From NCBI GenBank assembly GCA_964648865.1, contig CAZYLV010000004.1, positions 2,740-66,739 on the forward strand: DNA of 64,000 nt. Direction: 5' to 3'. Each line of letters opens with the position of its first letter. Within the stretch, counting starts at the first letter, position 1. The position numbers were made by a program, and so were the translations under genes. Shown here piece after piece: positions 4,706 through 61,963 of the stretch. This DNA is from an uncultured Gammaproteobacteria bacterium (GTDB lineage: Bacteria > Patescibacteriota > Patescibacteriia > 2-12-FULL-57-11). The notes beneath the pieces were generated by a model. It did not search any database, was not told the origin of the DNA, and saw nothing but the letters and a program-made list of their open reading frames with translations.

Positions 4706-6700
4706 TCACTTCGTCTTTTTGACAAGCGTCCCGTCCCAATCGGCCGGCGGCGGCTCTTGGAGGAACTGCTCGCAGCGGGCGATGTAATTCTGGAGCGACA
4801 CGTCCTCGGGCCGGGCGTGGGCCATCATATGGAAGGCGTCGCGGGCTTCCGTGAACTTCCGCGCCAGATAGAGCTCGCGCGCCTCGGTGAAGTGGGCGAC
4901 GGACATCTTCTGCTCTTCGGTCGCTTCCTCCGTACGGCAGACCACGGCGAAGATGTCGATGGGCTCCTTCTTGCCCTTCACGGCGACACGATCGAGCGGA
5001 CGCAGCAGGAAGCGCTCCCCCAGGAGTATCCGGGTGTGGTCGGAGACGATGATGTCCGTGCCGTAATCCTTGTTGAGCCCCTCGAGCCGCGCGCCGAGGT
5101 TCACGGCGTCGCCGAGCACGGTGTAGTCGAAGCGGGCGGTCGATCCCATGTTGCCGACGACCATCGGTCCCGAGTTGATGCCCACCCCGATGGCCAAGGC
5201 GACGCCCTCCGGGAAGGTGCCGTCGCCGTTCATCGCGGCGAGCGTCTCGCGCATGGCCAGCGCCGTCTCCACGGCATGGACGGCATGCTGCGCGTCGTCG
5301 AGCGGCGCGCCCCAGAAGGCCATGATGGCGTCGCCCATGTACTTGTCGAGCACGCCGTCGCGGGCGAAGACGAGCTTCGTCATGCCGTCGAGGTAGGCGT
5401 TGAGCACGGCGACGAGCTCTTCCGGCGCGAGCTTCTCCGAAATGGAGGTGAAGCCGCGCAGGTCGGAGAACAGCACGGTCATCTCGCGGCGCTCGCCGCC
5501 CAGGACGAGCTTCTCCGGATGCGCCATGAGGTCGCGCACCACGGCACCGGAGACGTAGCGCTCGAGCACGGTGCGGGTCCGCAGGCGTTCGTCCCGCTCG
5601 CGCAGCGAGCGCTCGACCGTGGTGGCGAAGGCCACGAGGACGACGGCGAGCGGCGGGTAGAAGATGTCCATGACGATGCCGCCGTCGAACAGCACGAAGG
5701 CCGTCGCGACGTATGCCAGCAGGAGCACGGCCACGAGCGGCCAGCCGATGCGCTGGCGGAACCGCAGCAGGGCCGCCGCGGCGGCCGCGGCCAGGAGCAC
5801 GATGAGCGCGTCGCGCAGCCACCCGGGCGGCTCCCGGAGCTGACGCCCGGCGCGCTCCGTCGCGATGGCGTTGGCGTGCACCTCGACCCCGGACATCTGT
5901 TCGCGCTTGGCGGTCGGCGTCGTCAGGACATCGTGGAAGTCCGGAGCCGTGGCGCCGACCAGCACGATGGCGCCCTTGAAGAGCGCGGGGTCCGCGCGCC
6001 CGGCCACCACGTCCGCCGCCGGGACCGTGGGGAAGCTGCCCTTCGGCCCGACGAAGTTGATGCGATAATTCCCCTCCTCCTGGGAGAAGACGTGCTCCGG
6101 GAACGCCGTCTCGAGGACGGCGCGGAAGAACGGCCGGTTGCGCTCGACGGTCACCCCGCGGACGGCGAGCGGCACGCGGCGGAAGACGCCGTCCTGGTCC
6201 GGAGGCGTGTTGACGAAGCCGACCGTCGCGGCCTCGGTGAGCTCCGGGATGGGCACGACGGGCCGCACGGCGACCGGCGCGTCATCGCCTGCGGCGCGGA
6301 CGAAGACGGCCTCGAGCGGCAGCACGACGTCGCCGGCCGCGCGCACCGCGTCGGCGAAGCGGGCGTCGTCACCGCACTCCTCGCGGCGCGGGTCGGGTAC
6401 GGCGCAGGTCGGCTCGGGGAAGTTCACGTCATACCCGATGGCCGCGGCCCCGGCGTCGGCGAGCGTCCGGACGATGTCGGCGTGCACGGACCGGCGCCAC
6501 GGCCACCGGCCGACCTCGCGCAGCGACGCGTCATCGATGGCCACGATGACGATGCCCTGCGGGGCCGGGTAACCGACGAAGAGCGCGTCGCCGAGCAGGC
6601 CCCGTGCGGAGGCGAACAACCCGAGCCGCGACGCCACGACCAAGACCGCCGCGATGGCGGCGGTCAAGAGGAGGGCGCGGCTGGCGCGGGGCGACGGCAT
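4706..6700 (-). CDS. CHASE2 sensor-domain adenylate/guanylate cyclase (class III) with a TPR-like C-terminus
   Basis: 664 aa. N-terminal TM, CHASE2-like extracytoplasmic region and a TM bundle, then a class III cyclase core (VTVLFSDLRGFT...YMGDAIMAFWGAP...NLGARLE). Confidence 0.85.
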   Translation of the reverse strand: MPSPRASRALLLTAAIAAVLVVASRLGLFASARGLLGDALFVGYPAPQGIVIVAIDDASLREVGRWPWRRSVHADIVRTLADAGAAAIGYDVNFPEPTCAVPDPRREECGDDARFADAVRAAGDVVLPLEAVFVRAAGDDAPVAVRPVVPIPELTEAATVGFVNTPPDQDGVFRRVPLAVRGVTVERNRPFFRAVLETAFPEHVFSQEEGNYRINFVGPKGSFPTVPAADVVAGRADPALFKGAIVLVGATAPDFHDVLTTPTAKREQMSGVEVHANAIATERAGRQLREPPGWLRDALIVLLAAAAAAALLRFRQRIGWPLVAVLLLAYVATAFVLFDGGIVMDIFYPPLAVVLVAFATTVERSLRERDERLRTRTVLERYVSGAVVRDLMAHPEKLVLGGERREMTVLFSDLRGFTSISEKLAPEELVAVLNAYLDGMTKLVFARDGVLDKYMGDAIMAFWGAPLDDAQHAVHAVETALAMRETLAAMNGDGTFPEGVALAIGVGINSGPMVVGNMGSTARFDYTVLGDAVNLGARLEGLNKDYGTDIIVSDHTRILLGERFLLRPLDRVAVKGKKEPIDIFAVVCRTEEATEEQKMSVAHFTEARELYLARKFTEARDAFHMMAHARPEDVSLQNYIARCEQFLQEPPPADWDGTLVKKTK

Positions 6701-6701
6701 G

Positions 6702-8609
6702 CTACGGGACGACCGTGACCGTGGCCGTGCCGGTGAAGGTCACGCCGTCGGTGAAACGCGCGGAGACGGTGACGGCGCCGCCGGAGGTGACTTGGGACGC
6801 GGTGAAGACGTTGGCCGCCAACGAACCCACCGGATCGCCGGTCATGCTCCAGACGGCGTCCGCGGTGACATCCCGCGCGCTGCCGTCGCTGTAGTGGGCC
6901 GTGGCCGTGAAGGCCTGGCCCATGCCGCCTTTGACCGTGGCCATGGCGGGCGCGACGCTGACGCGTTGCAGCGTCACCTGGACCTGCTGCGGCGGGAGGA
7001 CACGCACGGCAAAGGAACCGGCGAGACCGGCATAGGCGGCCTGCACCGTGGCGTCCCCGGCGGCCGAGGTCACGAGATCGCCGCGGGTGAGCGTGCCCAC
7101 CGGATCGCCGGCGAGCGCCCAGGCGGCCTCGACGGTGACGTCGCGCGTGGAGCCGTCTTCGTACGTGAGGATGGCGCGGAACTGCTGCGAGTCCGGCGTG
7201 TTCATGATGGTCCGGGTGCCGGTGACCGCCAGCGACGTGGGCGTGGATGCCGCGGGTTGGTTGGTGTTGGCGTTCGTCGGCGGTTGGTTGGTGTTCGTGG
7301 CCGTCGGCACGCTGACCTCGGCGTCCTGGTCCGCGGGCGGCTCCTCCGGCGTGGTGGTGGCCGTCGGCACCTCGTCACGCGTCGGACTCGGGAGGGGCAA
7401 GGCGGCGCGCGTGGGCATCTCCTGCCAGCCCATGGCGTCGGGGAACGCCGCGGCCATGGCCGTCATCAGCGCCTCGACGTCGGACCGCTCGCCCATCACC
7501 CGATCGCGCACCGCCTCCGGCACGGGGACGTCGGCGCCGTCGATCGCCGCGATGAGCAGGCGATGCTCCATGACGCGGCCGACCATGCGACGGACGCGAC
7601 GGCGCGCCGTCTCCGGGGACAGCTGCTGGAGCTCACGTTGCATCGCGCGCAGCCCGTCGACATAGGCCGCGAGCGTACGCTGCGCGCGGTCGCCCTTGCC
7701 GGCGCGCGCCAGGAGCACGGCCTCGGCGAAACGCCGCCCCTCGTAGGAGAGGCGCAGCTCCTGGCGGGCCTCCGGGTCGGTGGTCAACGCCAGCCGCAGG
7801 CGCTCGCCGAAACGGCGCAGCGGGTAGCGGACGTCGCCGGGCAGGACGTCGCCGAGCGCGGAGAGCCGCTGCTCGCGCCGGCGGCGGACGATCTCCAGGA
7901 ACCGCTCGTCCGCGGACATGTTCTTGCGGTACCAGGCGGAGCTGCGGAAGCGCTCGGCCATGGCGCGGCGCTGCATGGCGCCGGCCGCGCGGCCGTCCTT
8001 CTTGGGCATCCAGGCCTCCTCGCCGGAGCGCATCTCCTCCCATGAGGCCGCGGCCGAGAGCGGTGCGCCGCCCTCCGGCGCCTTGGCCACGCCGACCAGC
8101 CCGTCGACGACCTGCACGAAGTCGCCCGCCGGATCCGAGACGTCGGTCACGAAGGCCGTGCCGCGCACCGTGGCCACGACCGTCGAGGACTGCACGCTGA
8201 AGGCGGCATCCTGGTCGAGCAGCTTGGCGATGCGCGCCCAGACGCGGCCGGCGGTGACCCCGAGCGAGACGCGGGTCAGCGCGTGGTTCTCGGCATCGAC
8301 GGCCAGCTCCTGGACGACGACCTCGGCGCGCTCGTCGAGCCGCGCCGTGGCGCCGTCGTAGAAGTTGAGCGTGGCCTGGCTCTTGGCGTTGGTCTTGATC
8401 TGGTCGCCGACCGCGACCTCGGCGTCGGCCGCGACCGGCTGCCAGGATCCCCCGCCGCGACGCAGGAAGGCCTCCCCTTCGTCCACGGTGACCGTCGCCA
8501 CCGGCGCGGCGCGGTCCTCGGGAGCCGAGAGGGCCCAGGCATTGAGCCCGCCCACCACGGCCAAGATGAGCACGAGCAGCAGCGCCGCGAGGAAGGTCCG
8601 TTTCTTCAT
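6702..8609 (-). CDS. FecR-domain protein with a signal peptide, a central helical region and C-terminal Ig-like (Big_2-type) repeats
   Basis: 635 aa. N-terminal signal/TM, a FecR-like beta region (ATVTVDEGEAFL...VAVGDQIKT...ATLNFYDGATARLDE), a Pro/Thr linker and two repeated T-G-D-P-V-G-[ST]-L modules. Its stop lies 1 nt from the cyclase start. Confidence 0.75.
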   Translation of the reverse strand: MKKRTFLAALLLVLILAVVGGLNAWALSAPEDRAAPVATVTVDEGEAFLRRGGGSWQPVAADAEVAVGDQIKTNAKSQATLNFYDGATARLDERAEVVVQELAVDAENHALTRVSLGVTAGRVWARIAKLLDQDAAFSVQSSTVVATVRGTAFVTDVSDPAGDFVQVVDGLVGVAKAPEGGAPLSAAASWEEMRSGEEAWMPKKDGRAAGAMQRRAMAERFRSSAWYRKNMSADERFLEIVRRRREQRLSALGDVLPGDVRYPLRRFGERLRLALTTDPEARQELRLSYEGRRFAEAVLLARAGKGDRAQRTLAAYVDGLRAMQRELQQLSPETARRRVRRMVGRVMEHRLLIAAIDGADVPVPEAVRDRVMGERSDVEALMTAMAAAFPDAMGWQEMPTRAALPLPSPTRDEVPTATTTPEEPPADQDAEVSVPTATNTNQPPTNANTNQPAASTPTSLAVTGTRTIMNTPDSQQFRAILTYEDGSTRDVTVEAAWALAGDPVGTLTRGDLVTSAAGDATVQAAYAGLAGSFAVRVLPPQQVQVTLQRVSVAPAMATVKGGMGQAFTATAHYSDGSARDVTADAVWSMTGDPVGSLAANVFTASQVTSGGAVTVSARFTDGVTFTGTATVTVVP

Positions 8610-8685: not shown

Positions 8686-10074
8686 TCAGCGGCTGCGCCG
8701 CTCCTCGGACCACTCGATCCCGAAGATGGCCTTCGGGAAGAGCAGCTCGGCGAGCGGCGGCACGTGCCGCTTCTTGTAGTGGCGGTGGTTGATCGGGGAG
8801 CGCTCCAGCACGCTGCGCAGGTAGTTGCGCAAGGTGTCGTACTGCCCCTCGATGTCCCAGCCGTACAGCTTGTGGTTGACTCCGACGACGTCGTAGTCCT
8901 CCGCGCTGTAGGCGTTGGCCATCCGCCGCCGTCGTCCTCCGAGCAGCGGGAAGACGGCCGTGGCCGCGCGGATGCCCGCGGCGCGTTCGGTGGCGTCGCG
9001 GAAGGTCAGGCGGAAGCGCACCAGGTCCGGCAGTTCGGTCGGATCGAGACGGTTCTTGAGCAGCAGCTTCCAGAGGATGGAGCCGAGCTGCTTCTGTCCG
9101 GGATCGAAGGCCACCGGCAGCACCGCGCCGTCCAGCGTCCGGAAGAGCCGGTAGCCGAAGGGCACCTCGCGCAGGCGCTCGCCGTCGCGCGGACGTTCGC
9201 CCGCGTCGAGCAGCCGCAGCGGCCGACACTCCTTCTCGGAGACGCCCACGTGCAGCACGCAGCCCACCACCGTGTCGCGCACGAAGAACATCTCTTCGAG
9301 CCGCAAGGTCAGCAGGTGCGTGATGAGCGCCAGCGGATCCTCCACCGCCAGCCGGCGCAGCTCCTCCTCCCGCATCGTCGGCAGCAGCCCGGCGGCCACA
9401 TCGCGCTTGCTGCGCGCGGCGACGATCCAGGAGAGCACGTGCTCCCCGAGTTGGCGGATGCGCATCTCGATCTCGAAGATCCGCAACGCCAGCACCAGGT
9501 CGCGCCGCAGGGTGAAGGCCACGATGCGCGGGAGCAGGTCGCCCTGTCCGCCGCCGTTGCGCATCACCGGCATCCGACCGAGCTCCACGAGCACCGCGGC
9601 GGGGTCCGCCTCGGCCTCGAGCTTGCCCACCGAGGAGAGCAGGAAACTGCTGGCCTCGGGGATGTGCGCGTCGCGGAAGCGACGGACCTCCTCGCGCGCC
9701 TTGCGGAAGCAGGCGCGCAACTGGACGTAGACCTCCTCGTCGCTGAACCGTCCGTCGATGCCGTAGCTGTCGCGGGCGATCCGCGCGAGGACCGCCGCGC
9801 GTTCGCCGGGGTCGGCCGCGCGCATCCGGTCGGCGAGCATGCGCACGCGCAGCACCTCGTGCTGGAAGTGCTGCGAGAGCCCCAGGCCGCGGCCGCGGCG
9901 GTCCTGGCGCAACGCGCCCATCCCCCGCCGGCTCACCGGCAGGATGGGGGTCAGCAGCACGTCTTCCGGCTCGTCGTCCGCAGGGAGCGCCGGCCGCGTG
10001 CGCGGCGCGACCAGCGGACCGGGTTGATCGAACCGCGGATGGACGGGATCGGCTCGGGTTTCCTCGGTTTCCAA
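8686..10074 (-). CDS. hypothetical protein
   Basis: ORF runs to 10095 (GTG). TTG at 10074 is preferred because it is preceded by AAGGAGG. No recognised domain; codon usage is coding-like. Confidence 0.5.
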   Translation of the reverse strand: METEETRADPVHPRFDQPGPLVAPRTRPALPADDEPEDVLLTPILPVSRRGMGALRQDRRGRGLGLSQHFQHEVLRVRMLADRMRAADPGERAAVLARIARDSYGIDGRFSDEEVYVQLRACFRKAREEVRRFRDAHIPEASSFLLSSVGKLEAEADPAAVLVELGRMPVMRNGGGQGDLLPRIVAFTLRRDLVLALRIFEIEMRIRQLGEHVLSWIVAARSKRDVAAGLLPTMREEELRRLAVEDPLALITHLLTLRLEEMFFVRDTVVGCVLHVGVSEKECRPLRLLDAGERPRDGERLREVPFGYRLFRTLDGAVLPVAFDPGQKQLGSILWKLLLKNRLDPTELPDLVRFRLTFRDATERAAGIRAATAVFPLLGGRRRRMANAYSAEDYDVVGVNHKLYGWDIEGQYDTLRNYLRSVLERSPINHRHYKKRHVPPLAELLFPKAIFGIEWSEERRSR

Positions 10075-36709: not shown

Positions 36710-36790
36710 CGTTTCCTCCTCCCAGACCGTCTCACGTGAGGCGGTCTCGGAAAAGGGCCGGAATGTCGCTTCCGGTGGGCGCCGTGGCCG
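36710..36790 (-). repeat. family-A structured intergenic repeat, copy A2
   Basis: Hairpin ccggaa-tgtcgc-ttccgg (36758-36775) plus a 24-bp palindrome agaccgtctcacgtgaggcggtct (36724-36747) abutting the SD. Confidence 0.6.
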
Positions 36791-37048: not shown

Positions 37049-37125
37049 GTCTCTCCTCCTCCCAGACCATCTCATGTGAGCTGGTCTCGGAAAAGGGCCC
37101 GATGTCGCTCGGGTGGGCGCTGCCG
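37049..37125 (-). repeat. family-A structured intergenic repeat, copy A3
   Basis: Hairpin cccga-tgtcgc-tcggg (37098-37113) has the stem changed on both sides with the loop conserved. Palindrome agaccatctcatgtgagctggtct (37064-37087) shows a G-C to A-T covariation relative to A2. Confidence 0.6.
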
Positions 37126-37725: not shown

Positions 37726-37860
37726 CTTCCCTCCACTTCTTGTGAGACGAGAGAGGCATCCTCTCCCCCAAACCGCCACCGGAGTGACGGGCTGGGAAAA
37801 GGACGGGAGGGCGTCGAGCCGGGCTCGATGTCCCTCCCTACGGACCGCCACACGTGCGCC
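37726..37860 (-). repeat. family-B structured intergenic repeat, copy B1
   Basis: Long bipartite hairpin gggaggg-cgtcgagc-cgg-gctcgatg-tccctccc (37805-37838). It shares gggctggg-aaaagg and the downstream X segment with A1. Confidence 0.55.
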
Positions 37861-42402: not shown

Positions 42403-42480
42403 AAGCGGAGCGCGGGGAGCATACGCGCTCCCGCCGGGAAAATCAAGAGCGGCCCCGTTGGGGGTCGCTCTTGTGCTTGG

Positions 42481-42981: not shown

Positions 42982-43228
42982 AGGGTCGGTTGCCGCTTCT
43001 GGCAGCAAACGCGAGACCCTATCACAAACCGCGGGTTTTGTCAACCCTGCGACCCCGCCGGGGAGATCGAATTCCTGGTAGCCGAAGACGATGCGGGCCA
43101 TAGAAAAACGGGGCCTGCTGCCCCGCGAAATCAAGCCGTTTCGCGACTCGTGGACACCTGGAATCTGCGGGCAAGAGCATACCCCGCCCCGGCGGACCTG
43201 TCGAGCCTGGTATCCACAGGCGAATTCG

Positions 43229-43780
43229 CTAAGGACGTTCTTGGTCGGTTTCCCATTCGCGTGGATTGTTTGCGATGTATGCGCGGATGGCATGGAGGTG
43301 GCGTTCGGACCGGATGATGCGTTCGTGGTAATTGCGTTGCCATATCGGTAAACCAAACGTGTCGCCGATCCTACTGATTCTGTGGGTCGTTATGGCCTTG
43401 AACGTACGTACCAATTCGCCCAGGTCCGGGGCGTCATAAATGTCGCCCCTACGACCGATGAAACGCCGTTGTCCGTAGGGGCGTGATTCATCACGCCCAG
43501 GTCCAGCCGGATCGGGAATCCACATGACGACACCATGGACATGATTGGGCATGACAACCCATGAATCGGGGATGGTCGGAAACCGATCCGACAGACGGCG
43601 CCACGTTTCATCCACGATCCGCCCGGCATCATTCAATCGCATTTCCCCGTCAACGACGTCGCCAAACAGGCATTCCCGGTGTTTGACCACGACCGTCACG
43701 AAATACGCGCCGGGAGAAGCGTAATCGAAACCGGGCAGGCGGATGGAGCGTCGCCGGTGGGTGTCCGGGTTGAAGGGCAT
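43229..43780 (-). mobile_element. REP-associated tyrosine transposase (RAYT; IS200/IS605 TnpA-like HUH Y1 transposase), apparently intact
   Basis: 183 aa with AYFVTVVV, the HUH motif MPNHVHGVV and the C-terminal WQRNYHERIIRSERHLHAIRAYIANNP (catalytic-Tyr region). Confidence 0.75.
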
Positions 43781-43885
43781 GCTTCTAGCCTACGCCCAGC
43801 AGCGATGCGCCGAAATGTCAAGGTGCCCACGCTTATTGACCTTCAAAGAAGGAACGGCTATAGTTCTCGCCGTATTCCGAAAAAC

Positions 43886-43961
43886 GCAGCGGTCGCTCAG
43901 CTGGTCGAGCCGGGGCCTCTTAAGCCCAGGGCCCTGGGTGCGATCCCCAGCCGCGGCACCA
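43886..43961 (+). tRNA. tRNA-Lys(CTT)-like gene with atypical features; possibly a pseudogene or tRNA-like element
   Basis: 76 nt with the cloverleaf foldable by hand. Acceptor stem gcagcgg/ccgcggc has one A-G mismatch. D-arm gctc/gagc with GG. Anticodon loop ctCTTaa. T-arm ctggg-tgcgatc-cccag has G55 instead of U. CCA is encoded, and a plus-strand terminator follows. Confidence 0.4.
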
Positions 43962-43995
43962 ACCGGCGCCCCCGTCAGTGGGCGCCTTTTCGATT
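43962..43995 (+). terminator. intrinsic terminator downstream of the tRNA-Lys-like gene
   Basis: ggcgccc-ccgtcagtg-ggcgcc followed by ttttcg. Confidence 0.5.
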
Positions 43996-44000
43996 CCCTT

Positions 44001-44426
44001 CTACTTCCGCAGCCTCTTCAGGAGCATCGCGTCGAGCGACCAGGCGCCCGGGCCGTGCAGGAAGACGAGCAGGGAGGCCGCGGCGAGCAGCAGCTCGAAC
44101 TCGTAGCCCATATAGCTGGAGAGCCCCTTGGCCGCCAGGATGGCCACGGCCATGTTGATGACGAACGCCGCGCCCCAGACGCGGGACAGCAGCCCGATGA
44201 CGAGGAGCGCACCGCCGACCGTCTCGACCACGCCGACGAACGGCGCGAAGAAGGCGGGCGCGGGGATGCCGATCTTCTCGAAGAAGCCGACGGTCATCGC
44301 CGTGTTCTGGAGTTTGGGCAGGCCGTGCACGAGGAAGGTGACGCCGACGGTGGCGCGCAGGGCGAGGAGCCCGAGCGCCGCGGTCCATGGTCGCCTGAGC
44401 TGCGGGGGATCGATGAGCGTCTTCAT
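44001..44426 (-). CDS. DoxX-family membrane protein
   Basis: 141 aa with four TM helices and the DoxX pattern (GLPKL...GALLVIGLL). Confidence 0.8.
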   Translation of the reverse strand: MKTLIDPPQLRRPWTAALGLLALRATVGVTFLVHGLPKLQNTAMTVGFFEKIGIPAPAFFAPFVGVVETVGGALLVIGLLSRVWGAAFVINMAVAILAAKGLSSYMGYEFELLLAAASLLVFLHGPGAWSLDAMLLKRLRK

Positions 44427-44519
44427 AAGTGATGGTGTTTCGTCCAGTGTAGCGGTTTTCCGGGAACGAAAAAAGCGGCGACTCTCCCCGGTCGCCGCCT
44501 GCCTGCCTGTCGCGGGCGC

Positions 44520-45713
44520 TCAGCGGATGGCGAGCTCCGCGCCCACGAAGGGGTCGAACGTCAACGGCGAGATGATGACGCGCCGCCGCTTGTCCTTGAA
44601 CGGCTTGTCGACGTGGCCGTGTCCGACCACCTCGATGCCGTGGCTCGTCGCGAGCCTGCGGACACGCTTGACGTCCTTCTCCGGGAGGATGAGCGCATAG
44701 CCCGCCCCCATGTTGTAGTTCGCGTACATGTCCCGCTCGGGGACCTTGCCGTGCCGCTGGATGAAGCGGAACACCGGCTGCGGCGTGGGGATCCCGTCGA
44801 CCACGTAGGTGAAGGGTTTCCGCAGACGCATCAGCTTGCGCCAGCCGTGGCCCGTGACGTTGATCCCGTAGTGGATGTCCACGCCGGCCTCGAGCAGGTC
44901 CTGGACCAGGTCCGTGTAGATCACGGTCGGCGCCAGCAGCGCCTCGCCGAAGCATGAGCCGTCGTCGAGCCGGGCCAGGTAGCCGTCGCGCGTCTTCTCG
45001 GCGATCTCGCGCGCCAGCGTCAGCCCGTTGGCATGGATGCCCGAGGATGACAGCAGTACGATGGCGTCGCCCGCCGCGACGTCGCAGCGGATGACGCGCT
45101 TCTTGTCCGCGATGCCGTAGGCGGCGCCGGAGAGCTCCACCGTGTCGGGCGCGATGATGCCTTTGAGGATGGGCGTCTCGCCGCAACCCCAGGCGGCCCG
45201 GGCCAATGTGCAGCCCTTGGCCACGCCCCGGGCGTACTCGATGCAGCGTTCCTCGTCCGCGAACCATCCGCCGCTGCCGGCCGCCAGGTGCATGCCGACG
45301 ACGAGCGGGGCGACGCCCAGGGTAGCCATGTCGTTGACGATCATGGCGACGACGTCCTGTCCGATGGCGCGCCAGTGCGCCGCGGTCCGCAGGCCGGATC
45401 GCCCGAGCGCGGACGCGACGGCAGCCTTGTCGGCCAGGGCCAACGCGCGGCCCAGTCCGTCGACGACCAGGTTCTTGGTGCCCAGGCCCTCGACGACGAA
45501 GCCGAGGTAGTGGCCGTGCCCCTTGACGAGGTGCACGCTCTCCCCGCGGCTCCAGGCCACGTCCTCGTAGCCGAAGCGTCCCAGGTTCTTGGCGTGCGCC
45601 AGCGTGCCCAAGGCCTCCTTCATGAAGAGCACCTTGGCGGGATCGACGTCGTCGTAATCGACCCCCGCCTGTGCGTACGCGTCCTTCTTCTGCGGTTCCG
45701 AATCTCCTGCCAT
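44520..45713 (-). CDS. AIR-synthase-related (PurM-like superfamily) protein
   Basis: ATG 45713 preceded by GGAGGAG; the ORF runs to TTG 45731. N-terminal ...YAQAGVDYDD... and a PurM-like N/C domain pattern. The exact enzyme is not assigned. Confidence 0.6.
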   Translation of the reverse strand: MAGDSEPQKKDAYAQAGVDYDDVDPAKVLFMKEALGTLAHAKNLGRFGYEDVAWSRGESVHLVKGHGHYLGFVVEGLGTKNLVVDGLGRALALADKAAVASALGRSGLRTAAHWRAIGQDVVAMIVNDMATLGVAPLVVGMHLAAGSGGWFADEERCIEYARGVAKGCTLARAAWGCGETPILKGIIAPDTVELSGAAYGIADKKRVIRCDVAAGDAIVLLSSSGIHANGLTLAREIAEKTRDGYLARLDDGSCFGEALLAPTVIYTDLVQDLLEAGVDIHYGINVTGHGWRKLMRLRKPFTYVVDGIPTPQPVFRFIQRHGKVPERDMYANYNMGAGYALILPEKDVKRVRRLATSHGIEVVGHGHVDKPFKDKRRRVIISPLTFDPFVGAELAIR

Positions 45714-45771
45714 GCGCTCCTCCGCGCGCAACCTTGCCAGAGCTCGAGAAAACGCACAATATGGAGCGCAT

Positions 45772-45846
45772 GCGCCCCTAGCTCAACGGATAGAGCTCCG
45801 GTCTTCGGAACCGGCGATGGGGGTTCGATTCCCTCGGGGCGCACCA
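45772..45846 (+). tRNA. tRNA-Arg (anticodon TCG)
   Basis: Acceptor gcgcccc/ggggcgc. D-arm gctc/gagc. Anticodon stem ccggt/accgg with loop ctTCGga. T-arm ggggg-ttcgatt-ccctc. Discriminator A and encoded CCA. Confidence 0.85.
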
Positions 45847-45867
45847 GCGCTCCGCAACATCTTCCCT

Positions 45868-46518
45868 ATGCCCCCAAAGAAGACCGCCAAGCTCGAGAAG
45901 GCCCTGGCCTGCAAGGTCGTCCGCCATCCGCATGAGTTCCTGCGCGAGCTCCTCAACCTGCGCAACGAGCATCCCGAGCGCGAGCCCGAGATCGACCGCA
46001 AGATCCGCGAGACCTTCGAGTGCGAGCGCGCCCCGTTCATCCTGGACATGTCCGGCTTCTCGCGGACCGTCATCAAGCACGGCATCATCCACTACCTGGC
46101 GATGATCCGCCGCATGGTCAACGTGGCCATGCCCGCCATCACGGACAACAAAGGCGAGCTGGTGAAGCAGGAAGCCGACAACATCTTCGCCGTCTTCGCG
46201 GACCCGACGGACGCCGTGCACGCCGCCCAGGACGTCATCCGCGGGCTGGACGCGCTCAACACCGTGTTGCCGGACGAGAAGGACATCTACGTCTCCATCG
46301 GCATCGGGTACGGCGACATCCTGCTCGTCCCCGGCGAGGACTACTTCGGCAACGAGCTCAACCAGGCCTCCAAGCTCGGCGAGGACATCGCCGAGAAGGG
46401 CGAAGTGCTGCTCACCGAAGCTGCGCACGCCAAGATCACGGATCCCGACCTGAAATTCGAGAAGGTCGGCGCCTCCATCTCCGGCGTCAACCTCAAGTAC
46501 TACCGGCTCAAGAAGTGA
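45868..46518 (+). CDS. stand-alone adenylate/guanylate-cyclase-like (class III nucleotide cyclase) catalytic-domain protein, 216 aa
   Basis: ATG at M53 of the track ORF, 22 nt after the tRNA. Motifs FILDMSGFS, NIFAVFADPTDAVHAAQDV and SIGIGYGDILLVPGEDYFGNELNQASKLGE resemble the cyclase core. Confidence 0.55.
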   Translation: MPPKKTAKLEKALACKVVRHPHEFLRELLNLRNEHPEREPEIDRKIRETFECERAPFILDMSGFSRTVIKHGIIHYLAMIRRMVNVAMPAITDNKGELVKQEADNIFAVFADPTDAVHAAQDVIRGLDALNTVLPDEKDIYVSIGIGYGDILLVPGEDYFGNELNQASKLGEDIAEKGEVLLTEAAHAKITDPDLKFEKVGASISGVNLKYYRLKK

Positions 46519-60742: not shown

Positions 60743-60800
60743 GTTCGTAGGGGCGTGATTCATCACGCCCGTCCGAGTTCCCAGCCGGAATCCGGCGCCA
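60743..60800. repeat. roughly 55 bp copy of an internal segment of the RAYT gene (hairpin ggggcgtga-ttca-tcacgcccc preceded by GTAG), spanning the tsaD stop and tsaE start
   Basis: 27 of 28 nt identical to 43471-43499 (gt[c/t]cgtaggggcgtgattcatcacgccc), then cagccgga and atcc/gg similarity with indels. Confidence 0.55.
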
Positions 60801-61794
60801 GCGTCAGCGGGTCGGCGAAACGCTTTTGCTTCAACGCGAAGTATCCGGCCGCGGCGATCATCGCGGCGTTGTCTGAGGTCCACGGCAGATCGGGCTCGGC
60901 ATAGCGCGCCCGCGGCAGGCGCTCGGCCACGGCCGCGGCAAGCAGCGTGCGCAGCCGCGTGTTGGCCGCGACGCCGCCGCCCAAGAGCACCGTCTTAGCA
61001 CGTGCTCTCTTGGCTGCGGCAATGGTCTTCGTCACGAGCACCTCGCAGACGGCTTCTTCGAACGACGCACAGAGGTCGGCGGGCTTGGGTTTCTTCCCCC
61101 GTGCTTCCAGGATGCCGCGCACCGCGGTCTTGAGCCCCGAGAAACTGAAATCGAAATCCCTAGAAGCGATCATCGGCCGCGGCAGCTTCACCGTGCGCGG
61201 ATCGCCTTTCCTCGCGAGTGCCGCGACGGCCGGTCCGCCCGGATACCCGAGCCCCAAGAGCTGCGCCACCTTGTCGAAGGCCTCGCCGGCGGCATCGTCG
61301 CGCGTCGCGCCGAGCAGCTCATACTGCCCGAGCCTCTTCACGCGCAACAGCTCGGTGTGTCCGCCGGAGACGATGAGCGCCACGGCGGGGAAAGCGATGC
61401 GCGGGTTGGTGAGCCAATTAGCGGCGATATGGCCCTCGATGTGGTTGACGGCCAGGAGGGGCACGGCGCGCCGTGCCCCTACAGACCAGAGCCAGGCCAA
61501 CGTACGGCCGACATCGACGCCGACACGAAGCGACGTGATGAGCCCGGGTCCGGCCGTCACGGCGATGGCGTCGGCCTTGGGGCGGCGCACGTCGCCGAGG
61601 AGCTTCTTCAGCACCGGGAAGATGGTCTCGGCGTGTTCCCGCGCCGCGACCTCCGGCACCACGCCGCCGTACTTCTTGTGGATCAGCACCTGGGAAGCGG
61701 TCAGCACCTTCTCCACACGGAACTTCCCACGCTCCGCCGTGAGGAGCGCGAGCGAGGTCTCGTCGCAGGAGGTTTCGATGCCCAGGATGCGCAT
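60763..61794 (-). CDS. tsaD: tRNA N6-adenosine threonylcarbamoyltransferase TsaD
   Basis: ATG 61794 (MRILGIETSCDETS...); the ORF track extends to 61941. Kae1/TsaD metal-binding HxEGH and GGVAAN motifs. Confidence 0.9.
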   Translation of the reverse strand: MRILGIETSCDETSLALLTAERGKFRVEKVLTASQVLIHKKYGGVVPEVAAREHAETIFPVLKKLLGDVRRPKADAIAVTAGPGLITSLRVGVDVGRTLAWLWSVGARRAVPLLAVNHIEGHIAANWLTNPRIAFPAVALIVSGGHTELLRVKRLGQYELLGATRDDAAGEAFDKVAQLLGLGYPGGPAVAALARKGDPRTVKLPRPMIASRDFDFSFSGLKTAVRGILEARGKKPKPADLCASFEEAVCEVLVTKTIAAAKRARAKTVLLGGGVAANTRLRTLLAAAVAERLPRARYAEPDLPWTSDNAAMIAAAGYFALKQKRFADPLTLAPDSGWELGRA

Positions 61795-61801
61795 GCAGGC
61801 G

Positions 61802-61830
61802 ATTGTACGGGCGAAACGGGGGCGAGACAA
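61802..61830 (-). promoter_or_regulatory. sigma70-type promoter (TTGTCT, 17 nt spacer, TACAAT) 7 nt upstream of the tsaD ATG; implies a leaderless mRNA
   Basis: Minus strand: ttgtct cgcccccgtttcgcccg tacaat cgcctgc ATG. Confidence 0.45.
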
Positions 61831-61934
61831 TACGCTTTTGTAGTCCCCGCACCCACACCAAAGAAAAGTGAGTGCGAGAGATTCGCCTTTGTTTAGAGCA
61901 AACTTTAACGCTTGTAGACAATGTAACTTAGTGA

Positions 61935-61963
61935 TTGACATTAGTTATGAGTGCATGTAAACT
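61935..61963 (+). promoter_or_regulatory. textbook sigma70 promoter (TTGACA, 17 nt spacer, TAAACT) in the low-GC island
   Basis: ttgaca ttagttatgagtgcatg taaact; about 20 nt upstream of the 61986 ATG. Confidence 0.5.

Follow-up and report, generated by a model that had tools for sequence, protein, structure and literature searches.

A putative subclass 2.4 RAYT gene with in-frame REP sequences beside a tRNA-Lys(CUU) gene in a Patescibacteria genome

A gene resembling those of REP-associated tyrosine transposases (RAYT; REP, repetitive extragenic palindromic sequence) lies next to a divergently oriented, tRNA-Lys-shaped gene in a 64,000-nt stretch (hereafter the window) of contig CAZYLV010000004.1 (GenBank assembly GCA_964648865.1, positions 2,740 to 66,739 of the forward strand) from an uncultured bacterium. 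The locus raises the questions of what this transposase is, on which repeats it might act, and whether the tRNA-like gene has anything to do with it. An annotation made by a model from the letters of the window without database searches (the sequence-only reading) had described an intact RAYT adjacent to an atypical tRNA-Lys-like gene. The host genome is of groundwater type and, judged by the relatives of its TypA protein, belongs to the Patescibacteria (candidate phyla radiation, CPR) near Ca. Uhrbacteria. Our analysis favors, with a probability of roughly 0.8, a RAYT of subclass 2.4 that carries its own REPs, occupies a cassette slot, and neighbors a lineage-normal tRNA-Lys gene bearing a cluster of variants private to this record. 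Overall, this is an ordinary RAYT and tRNA locus with one unexplained substitution cluster. The coordinates of the features are collected in Table 1.

The RAYT gene and its own REPs

The 183-aa open reading frame (ORF) with the motifs MPNHVHGVV, WQRNYHERIIR, and YIANNP was recovered as previously described, and its assignment to the RAYTs was backed by family search, motifs, alignment to E. coli TnpA_REP, and predicted fold. More than 7,900 homologues were present in the protein database (nearest non-self sequence at 53% identity), several of them carrying the Joint Genome Institute (JGI) name "REP element-mobilizing transposase RayT." The HUH histidines, W147-Q148-R149, R157, Y168, N172, and P173 did not vary among 26 aligned sequences, and a profile built from this alignment matched a single sequence of the Protein Data Bank (PDB), namely E. 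coli TnpA_REP (4ER8). In the residue alignment to 4ER8, Y168 pairs with the catalytic Y115 and N172 with N119, a metal ligand, and W147/Q148 correspond to W94/Q95, the region of TnpA_REP that has been implicated in GTAG recognition (PMC6006769). The HUH motif and the RAYT-type C-terminus on which the sequence-only reading relied were thus retained, with the correction that the single catalytic tyrosine of helix αD is Y168 in YIANNP and that WQRNY corresponds to the recognition region.

The AlphaFold model of the protein (predicted local distance difference test (pLDDT) 78.6; predicted template modeling score (pTM) 0.74) had a confident core with the RNA recognition motif (RRM)-like HUH fold, and pLDDT was low (50–61) across residues 91–120. 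When the model was searched with Foldseek against the PDB, the best 30 matches were all Y1 HUH transposases or TnpA_REP, including IS608, ISDra2, and 4ER8, with no non-transposase family among them; the lowest root mean square deviation (rmsd) belonged to 4ER8 (3.3 Å). Searches with transposase hidden Markov models (HMMs), which had been suggested as a check, gave matches to both families below their curated cut-offs, i.e., 59.1 bits for NCBIfam REP_Tyr_transpos (NF047646; cut-off 80, E = 4e-16) and 17.7 bits for Pfam Y1_Tnp (PF01797; cut-off 23). The scores are reduced because a REP-encoded insert splits the profile match in two, and at E = 4e-16 the homology to RAYTs is beyond doubt despite the missed cut-offs. 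By homology, the ORF is a genuine, intact Y1 HUH nuclease of the RAYT/TnpA_REP family.

The insert is a dimer of two REP units, read in frame as ...GRDESRPY...RRGDIYDAP... and located between the HuH strand (β3) and helix C, where the model has a peripheral loop of low pLDDT. The DNA of the dimer folds with −27.4 kcal/mol (z = −3.2). An Rfam match to mir-3179 at 43421–43506 (36.7 bits, gathering threshold 90) was discarded as a by-product of this long hairpin. For comparison, 80 family loci were fetched from GTDB genomes, of which 74 were usable. A GT[AG]G-footed hairpin was present in the variable segment of 59 of these 74 loci, as opposed to 4 of 74 for an N-terminal control segment of equal length, and GTAGGGGC opened 97 of the 107 footed hairpins found in the variable segments. 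In 32 of the 74 loci, 14-mers of the variable segment recurred outside the ORF within 20 kb (ORF control, 4/74; cross-locus control, 5/74), so that the gene-internal hairpins can be regarded as each genome's own REPs. The inward-facing order of the feet ("-+") in the window dimer was found at no other locus (1/74); outward-facing feet were found in 29/74.

An architecture of this kind has been described by Quentin et al. 2018 (BMC Genomics, PMC6006769) for TnpA_Y1 subclass 2.4, the counterpart of RAYT Group 4 in the scheme of Bertels et al. 2017 (PMC5581495). Its members have a hypervariable insert between β3 and αC, in-frame REP insertions between HuH and Y are its unique feature, the median distance from HuH to Tyr is 88 aa, the REPs are either long with three basal G-C pairs or "double-foot," and the taxonomic distribution is patchy and resembles that of insertion sequences (IS) (PMC6006769). 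In the window RAYT, the distance from H80 to Y168 is 88 aa and thus equal to the published median, and its REPs are of the type with GTAG followed by a GGG...CCC stem, double-foot REPs being found in the related genomes L086, L087, and L089 (see below). By these sequence features, the gene fits subclass 2.4/Group 4. A REP inside a RAYT gene was ruled out as a novel finding, since this layout was published for subclass 2.4 in 2018 (PMC6006769); the layout is of an already described kind, and the member in a CPR host is new.

The same features bear on the possibility that the gene is an inactive relic whose internal REP dimer is merely a tolerated disruptive insertion. The reading frame is intact, all family-invariant catalytic and recognition residues are kept, the core of the model is confident with the insert in a peripheral low-confidence loop, five same-strain assemblies have the identical ORF, and in-frame REPs are the norm of the subclass (59/74 loci). 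A relic is hence considered improbable, even though the low REP density of the window, the two missed HMM cut-offs, and a REP orientation unique among 74 loci would agree with it.

Outside the ORF, REPs were rare. The window contained 21 GT[AG]G-footed hairpins compared to 19.3 expected from shuffles, and the 9-mer GTAGGGGCG with one mismatch allowed occurred at chance level. The sequence-only reading had tied the RAYT to hairpin repeats said to be abundant elsewhere in the window; as REPs, these did not withstand the comparison, and a general REP abundance was ruled out by the shuffles, leaving the exact GTAGGGGC-footed family as the only real one. This family comprises four hairpins per 64 kb, two of them inside the RAYT ORF. 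The third is an identical copy of unit 1 that fills the gap between tsaD and tsaE, where its stem provides the stop codon of tsaD (GGGCGTGA) and the start of tsaE follows 18 nt further on. The fourth is a variant within tsaD (60763–61941, minus strand), at a place where six residues are inserted compared with T. maritima TsaD (6NAK). GTAG REPs lying within other genes have been reported before (Di Nocera et al. 2013, PMC3733652). The proposed link between RAYT and REPs was therefore upheld in kind, i.e., an association with GT[AG]G-footed REPs exists at low copy number, and revised as to the sequences, the cognate REPs being the two in the ORF together with 60747–60770 and 61459–61482 in place of the general hairpins. 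No REPs flanked the RAYT within the window. A REPIN population (many inverted REP doublets) was not observed either, as the only doublet in 64 kb lies inside the RAYT and the two other REPs are singlets.

A 49-nt repeat with a hairpin and no GTAG foot was additionally observed in three copies in a paralogous gene cluster (36714–36762, 37054–37102, and 37760–37808; e.g., GACCGTCTCACGTGAGGCGGTC). These copies are probably a shared regulatory or terminator sequence and may be part of what had been described as abundant hairpin repeats.

By analogy to E. coli TnpA_REP (PMC3479197) and the description of the subclass, the RAYT would bind GTAG-footed REP hairpins on single-stranded DNA through its W-Q...R region and would cut and rejoin them, using the metal held by H80/H82 and forming a 5'-phosphotyrosine at Y168. 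Such activity would spread or rearrange REPs at low frequency, and REP spread would reach tolerant loops of coding genes, e.g., of the RAYT itself and of tsaD. GTAG REPs and a RAYT are documented here for a Patescibacteria lineage of roughly the 1-Mb class, with REPs in frame in both RAYT and tsaD.

Table 1 Features of the RAYT and tRNA-Lys locus and of the REPs in the window
Feature	Position in window	Strand	Remarks
RAYT/TnpA_REP gene, 183 aa	43229..43780	-	Uninterrupted ORF; features of subclass 2.4/Group 4 type
Y168-IANNP, putative catalytic tyrosine helix	43262..43279	-	Y168 aligns with Y115 and N172 with N119 of 4ER8
W147-Q148-R149-N150-Y151	43328..43342	-	Equivalent to W94/Q95 region of TnpA_REP (GTAG recognition); tyrosine here non-catalytic
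REP dimer, in frame inside RAYT ORF	43421..43506	-	86 nt, long hairpin; encodes approximately residues 92-120
REP unit 2, GTAGGGGCGACATTTATGACGCCC	43429..43452	-	Inverted relative to unit 1; feet face each other over 22-nt spacer
REP unit 1, GTAGGGGCGTGATTCATCACGCCC	43475..43498	+	GTAG foot; 9-bp stem opening with three G-C pairs; identical to extragenic copy at 60747-60770
HUH codons H80-V81-H82	43535..43543	-	Invariant in family alignment; equivalent to H59-M60-H61 of E. coli TnpA_REP
Promoter-like site for tRNA-Lys	43836..43864	+	TTGACC, 17-nt spacer, TATAGT; 10/12 matches
tRNA-Lys(CUU) gene, 76 nt	43886..43961	+	Seven private A/T to G/C changes at tRNA positions 9, 21, 26, 44, 47, 55, 70
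Terminator-like hairpin between convergent tRNA-Lys and DoxX	43965..43986	+	Three private changes at 43963, 43964, 43972
Extragenic copy of REP unit 1 at tsaD/tsaE junction	60747..60770	+	25 nt identical (60746-60770) including the preceding C
REP variant GTAGGGGCACGGCGCGCCGTGCCC, in frame in tsaD	61459..61482	-	Encodes VGARRAVP

The chromosomal slot and its occupants in related genomes

The RAYT sits in a slot that adjoins tRNA-Lys(CUU) and precedes the genes for the 3D-domain protein and TypA, and in relatives this slot is held by very different RAYT alleles or by a scar. In L086 (GCA_004297205.1; TypA 84% identical to the window), the order is PurM, DoxX, tRNA-Lys(ctt), terminator, RAYT, 3D-domain gene, and TypA. 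In L089 (GCA_041643055.1; TypA 82%), an integrase is followed by tRNA-Lys(ctt) on the opposite strand, a REP doublet, an intact RAYT that had not been called as a gene (6640–7173), the 3D-domain gene, and TypA. L087 (a Hainich H41 metagenome-assembled genome (MAG); TypA 84%) has tRNA-Arg, tRNA-Lys, an unrelated ORF, and then a remnant made up of the region upstream of the RAYT and its first 12 codons (MPFNPDTHRRRS), fused to downstream sequence: at 9060–9135, these codons match the N-terminus in the window exactly and run directly into sequence that in L086 and the window lies behind the RAYT stop. By this alignment, L087 retains the scar of a RAYT gene deletion. In L090 (a JGI contig; TypA 75%), tRNA-Lys, 3D-domain gene, and TypA are present without a RAYT.

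RAYTs sharing the slot were 44–51% identical to one another, compared to 82–92% for TypA. Between window and L086, nucleotide identity was 84–93% over the flanks and the initial ~65 nt of the gene, and 29–73% inside the gene. From the divergent alleles and the scar we infer that the RAYT was replaced repeatedly, in a cassette-like manner, in a fixed slot rather than inherited by simple vertical descent, so that divergent alleles would replace each other at one chromosomal position by tRNA-Lys. The orientation of tRNA-Lys relative to TypA differs between window, L089, and L090 on the one hand and L086 and L087 on the other, which indicates that the locus is prone to rearrangement.

Composition sets the RAYT apart as well. 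The ORF has 57.6% GC compared to 67.8% for the window, the RAYT/tRNA region as a whole has 54–61% compared to 65–72% in its flanks, and the RAYTs are 7–14 points below the GC of each host. The genome of L087 also contains an intact RAYT elsewhere (L016), between homologues of window positions ~55650 and ~55545. This copy (L016 4020–4600) is 79% identical to the L086 allele and consists of a bare insert of ~590 nt (upstream region and ORF) without flanking REPs; the site is empty in the window. The low GC, this second insertion site, and the patchy, IS-like distribution of subclass 2.4 (PMC6006769) are what would be expected if the ORF were the transposase of an autonomous IS200/IS605-type element that had newly inserted beside the tRNA. 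Such an element is unlikely here, as neither subterminal left- and right-end hairpins nor a flanking tnpB gene are present, only one copy exists in 64 kb, the slot is common to three genomes and a fourth has a scar there, the HuH-to-Tyr spacing is, like the W-Q-R motif and the GTAG REPs, a feature of RAYTs and not of IS200, and none of the 74 family loci adjoins a tRNA.

The latter count was obtained with ARAGORN, which found no tRNA within 500 nt of the RAYT ORF at any of the 74 loci; tRNA adjacency was rejected as a trait of the RAYT family and is a matter of local history, not a property of RAYTs. The suggestion that the tRNA served as an insertion target was accordingly kept as plausible for this locus, given the integrase in L089 and the rearranged relatives, and dropped as a general property of RAYTs. 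In L089, the phage-type integrase gene (5210–6450) directly adjoins the 3' end of tRNA-Lys(ctt), which it overlaps as called, and the REP doublet (6500–6600) lies between tRNA-Lys and the RAYT missed by the gene caller.

Between the 3D-domain and TypA genes, double-foot REPs (GTAG...CTAC) were seen in L086 (9929–9955), L087 (9930–9955), and L089 (7903–7929), and an unrelated plain hairpin in the window (42403–42480), i.e., REP occupancy is polymorphic in the clade. Upstream of the RAYT, ~45 nt are conserved with a TTGACA-to-TAnnnT spacing of 20–23 nt, and a promoter scan made no sigma-70 call there. A further unit was observed on the minus strand (43108–43204), in the stretch from the RAYT stop to the 3D-domain gene, with a promoter-like TCGACA, a 17-nt spacer, and TATGCT, followed after ~50 nt by a terminator-like hairpin (GCGGGGCAGCAGGCCCCGT) and TTTTT. 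L086 and L087 conserve it and L089 does so in part, neither L090 nor the L016 RAYT copy has it, and no Rfam match was obtained. The unit may encode a small RNA or act as an attenuator ahead of the 3D-domain gene; its membership in a mobile RAYT module was rejected because the L016 copy lacks it.

Subclass 2.4 RAYTs can score below Pfam and NCBIfam cut-offs owing to their embedded REPs, and automated annotation can hence miss them, as in the case of the uncalled gene of L089.

The tRNA-Lys(CUU) gene and its substitution cluster

The tRNA-Lys-shaped gene, divergent from the RAYT and 105 nt from its start codon, was confirmed together with its A3·G70 mismatch, its UGCGAUC T-loop (G55), its encoded CCA, and a terminator-like hairpin. 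ARAGORN made no call at default settings and called tRNA-Lys(ctt) at a threshold of 95%. The Rfam tRNA model scored 45.4 bits (gathering threshold 29), compared to 69–70 bits for the relatives. The promoter scan of the region returned 3 sites versus 0.3 expected. With C21, G55, and A3·G70, the gene departs from the conserved A21 and U55 and from a fully paired acceptor stem.

Comparison with relatives and with the same strain confined these oddities to this one record. The tRNA-Lys genes of three relatives are identical save for position 59, and nine positions set the window apart from them, with AT replaced by GC at each. Two of these, A28G and U42C, form a compensatory pair, and a G27·A43 mismatch is common to the window and the canonical relatives. 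For the same strain, five Logan contigs (L001–L005) from five sequencing runs were compared. L001 covers window positions 43064–45963 and is identical except for ten positions, all of which lie within 79 nt (43894–43972); at each, Logan has A or T and the window C or G. The five assemblies match the window over 2.9 kb at all but these ten positions. Seven of the ten are located in tRNA-Lys, which is 69/76 identical to the canonical allele of the strain, and three in its 3' flank and terminator. The Logan tRNA-Lys is canonical (A3-U70, A21, U55; called by ARAGORN at default settings in L001–L003), and the Logan terminator is a perfect bidirectional A4-stem-T4 hairpin for the convergent tRNA and DoxX genes that is weakened in the window. 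A degenerate pattern for either allele retrieved a single contig from JGI metagenomes (L090), and this is canonical. The earlier interpretation as a biologically atypical tRNA-like gene was therefore abandoned in favor of a syntenic tRNA-Lys(CUU), which is canonical in L086, L087, L089, L090, and the five same-strain assemblies. The prevailing tRNA-Lys(CUU) of the organism is ordinary, whichever origin the variant has, and the variant reads as neither a distinct tRNA-like element nor functionally linked to the RAYT.

Several processes were considered for the cluster. GC drift was rejected as an explanation of the oddities of tRNA-Lys, the G28-C42 pair being the only true lineage feature among the nine differences. 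Real GC drive on tRNAs is indicated by the tRNA-Arg (TCG) gene 1.8 kb away (45772–45846), which is the same in window and L001 and carries, relative to three relatives, ~8 AT to GC changes including three compensated stem pairs (7-66, 28-42, 51-63) that are also present in Logan; the lineage has 68% GC. Mutagenesis of the type of diversity-generating retroelements (DGRs) is incompatible with T at three of the ten changed sites of the same strand and was rejected. Gene conversion from a donor inside the window was likewise rejected, as neither a donor nor a paralogue of the variant tRNA-Lys was found in the 64 kb. As a separate observation, L002 differed from the window at 44350–44516 (5' end of DoxX and upstream) by 15 differences of mixed direction, a pattern suggestive of normal strain variation or of a chimeric end of the contig, unlike the tRNA cluster with changes from A/T (W) to G/C (S) only.

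The variant bases are thus private to the window record and are either an error of the record or assembly or a rare hypermutated or converted allele. A real allele, produced by local W-to-S hypermutation or a short conversion tract, on its way to a pseudogene or a tRNA-like RNA, and perhaps promoted by the HUH nuclease, is possible but rather doubtful. De Bruijn assemblers do not normally invent ten linked substitutions, and the changes are non-random: the probability that all ten changed sites are W is 1.4e-5, that of their clustering within 2.9 kb is ~8e-14, and both GTAG tetranucleotides of the D-arm have become GTCG in a locus that is prone to rearrangement (tRNA flipped among relatives, integrase in L089). 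The canonical form in five independent assemblies and in L090 speaks against a real allele, as do the lack of any other difference from the same-strain assemblies over 2.8 kb, the unchanged tRNA-Arg nearby, and the missing donor paralogue in the window. Moreover, the changes hit the universally conserved A21 and U55, break the 3-70 pair, and damage the bidirectional terminator, which suggests that no selection acts on them, and no known natural process yields mixed A and T to G/C changes within 79 nt (DGR mutagenesis affects A only). More specifically, it is highly unlikely that the ten linked changes are a real, recent, and localized mutation of tRNA-Lys and terminator beside the gene of an active single-strand nuclease, for which nick-initiated, GC-biased repair synthesis or a short conversion tract would be a possible route. 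If true, it would represent targeted W-to-S hypermutation of a new kind, able to cripple a tRNA gene in a minimal CPR genome. The disappearance of a tRNA oddity of a single MAG record upon comparison with independent same-strain assemblies calls for caution with tRNA-like claims from metagenome bins.

Four points weigh against the reading of the locus as a subclass 2.4 RAYT with its own REPs next to an ordinary tRNA-Lys gene. Both curated HMM cut-offs (PF01797 and NF047646) are missed by the ORF; the placement in subclass 2.4 rests on features, i.e., HuH-Tyr distance, insert, and REP type; the density of REPs is low, at four GTAGGGGC-footed hairpins per 64 kb; and the variant haplotype may exist in real DNA, since short-read assemblers normally emit only k-mers supported by reads.

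Comparison with known systems

Like canonical bacterial tRNA-Lys(CUU) genes, the one in the window has the usual anticodon, cloverleaf, encoded CCA, promoter, terminator, and synteny with relatives, and differs by C9, C21, C26, G44, C47, G55, and G70, so that the A21/U55 tertiary positions and the 3-70 pair are gone. With the TnpA proteins of the IS200/IS605 family (IS608, ISDra2), the RAYT shares, as far as the model predicts, the Y1 HUH fold and the catalytic chemistry. Unlike them, it lacks IS ends and tnpB, has an N-terminal motif and a W-Q-R motif of RAYT type, and sits, as the only copy of the window, in a syntenic slot. Intragenic GTAG REPs and Rickettsia palindromic elements (RPEs) (PMC3733652) resemble the REPs described here in that palindromes lie in frame in coding genes and add 8–30 residues in loops, here in RAYT and tsaD; they differ in that the RAYT as host gene encodes the enzyme presumed to act on the repeat.

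E. coli TnpA_REP (YafM; PDB 4ER8; Messing et al. 2012, PMC3479197) has the same fold as predicted for the window RAYT (rmsd 3.3 Å, 22% identity) with equivalent HUH, W-Q...R, Y, and N residues, and a GTAG-footed hairpin on single-stranded DNA is presumably recognized in both cases. In contrast to the E. coli protein, the distance from HuH to Tyr is 88 aa instead of 56 aa, the C-terminal extension with E161 is absent, H123 is replaced by W176, and the REPs lie inside the gene instead of flanking it. The closest correspondence is that with subclass 2.4/Group 4, with which the window RAYT shares the HUH and Tyr motifs, the 88-aa spacing, the REP-built hypervariable segment between β3 and αC, the GTAG foot, the three basal G-C pairs, the lack of a C-terminal extension, and the patchy distribution across phyla. 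It deviates from the norm of the subclass by the inward-facing feet of its REP dimer (1/74, the usual outward order being found in 29/74) and by the lack of flanking REPs in the window, and its host belongs to the Patescibacteria (CPR), a group for which no mention was found in the literature searched on this subclass.

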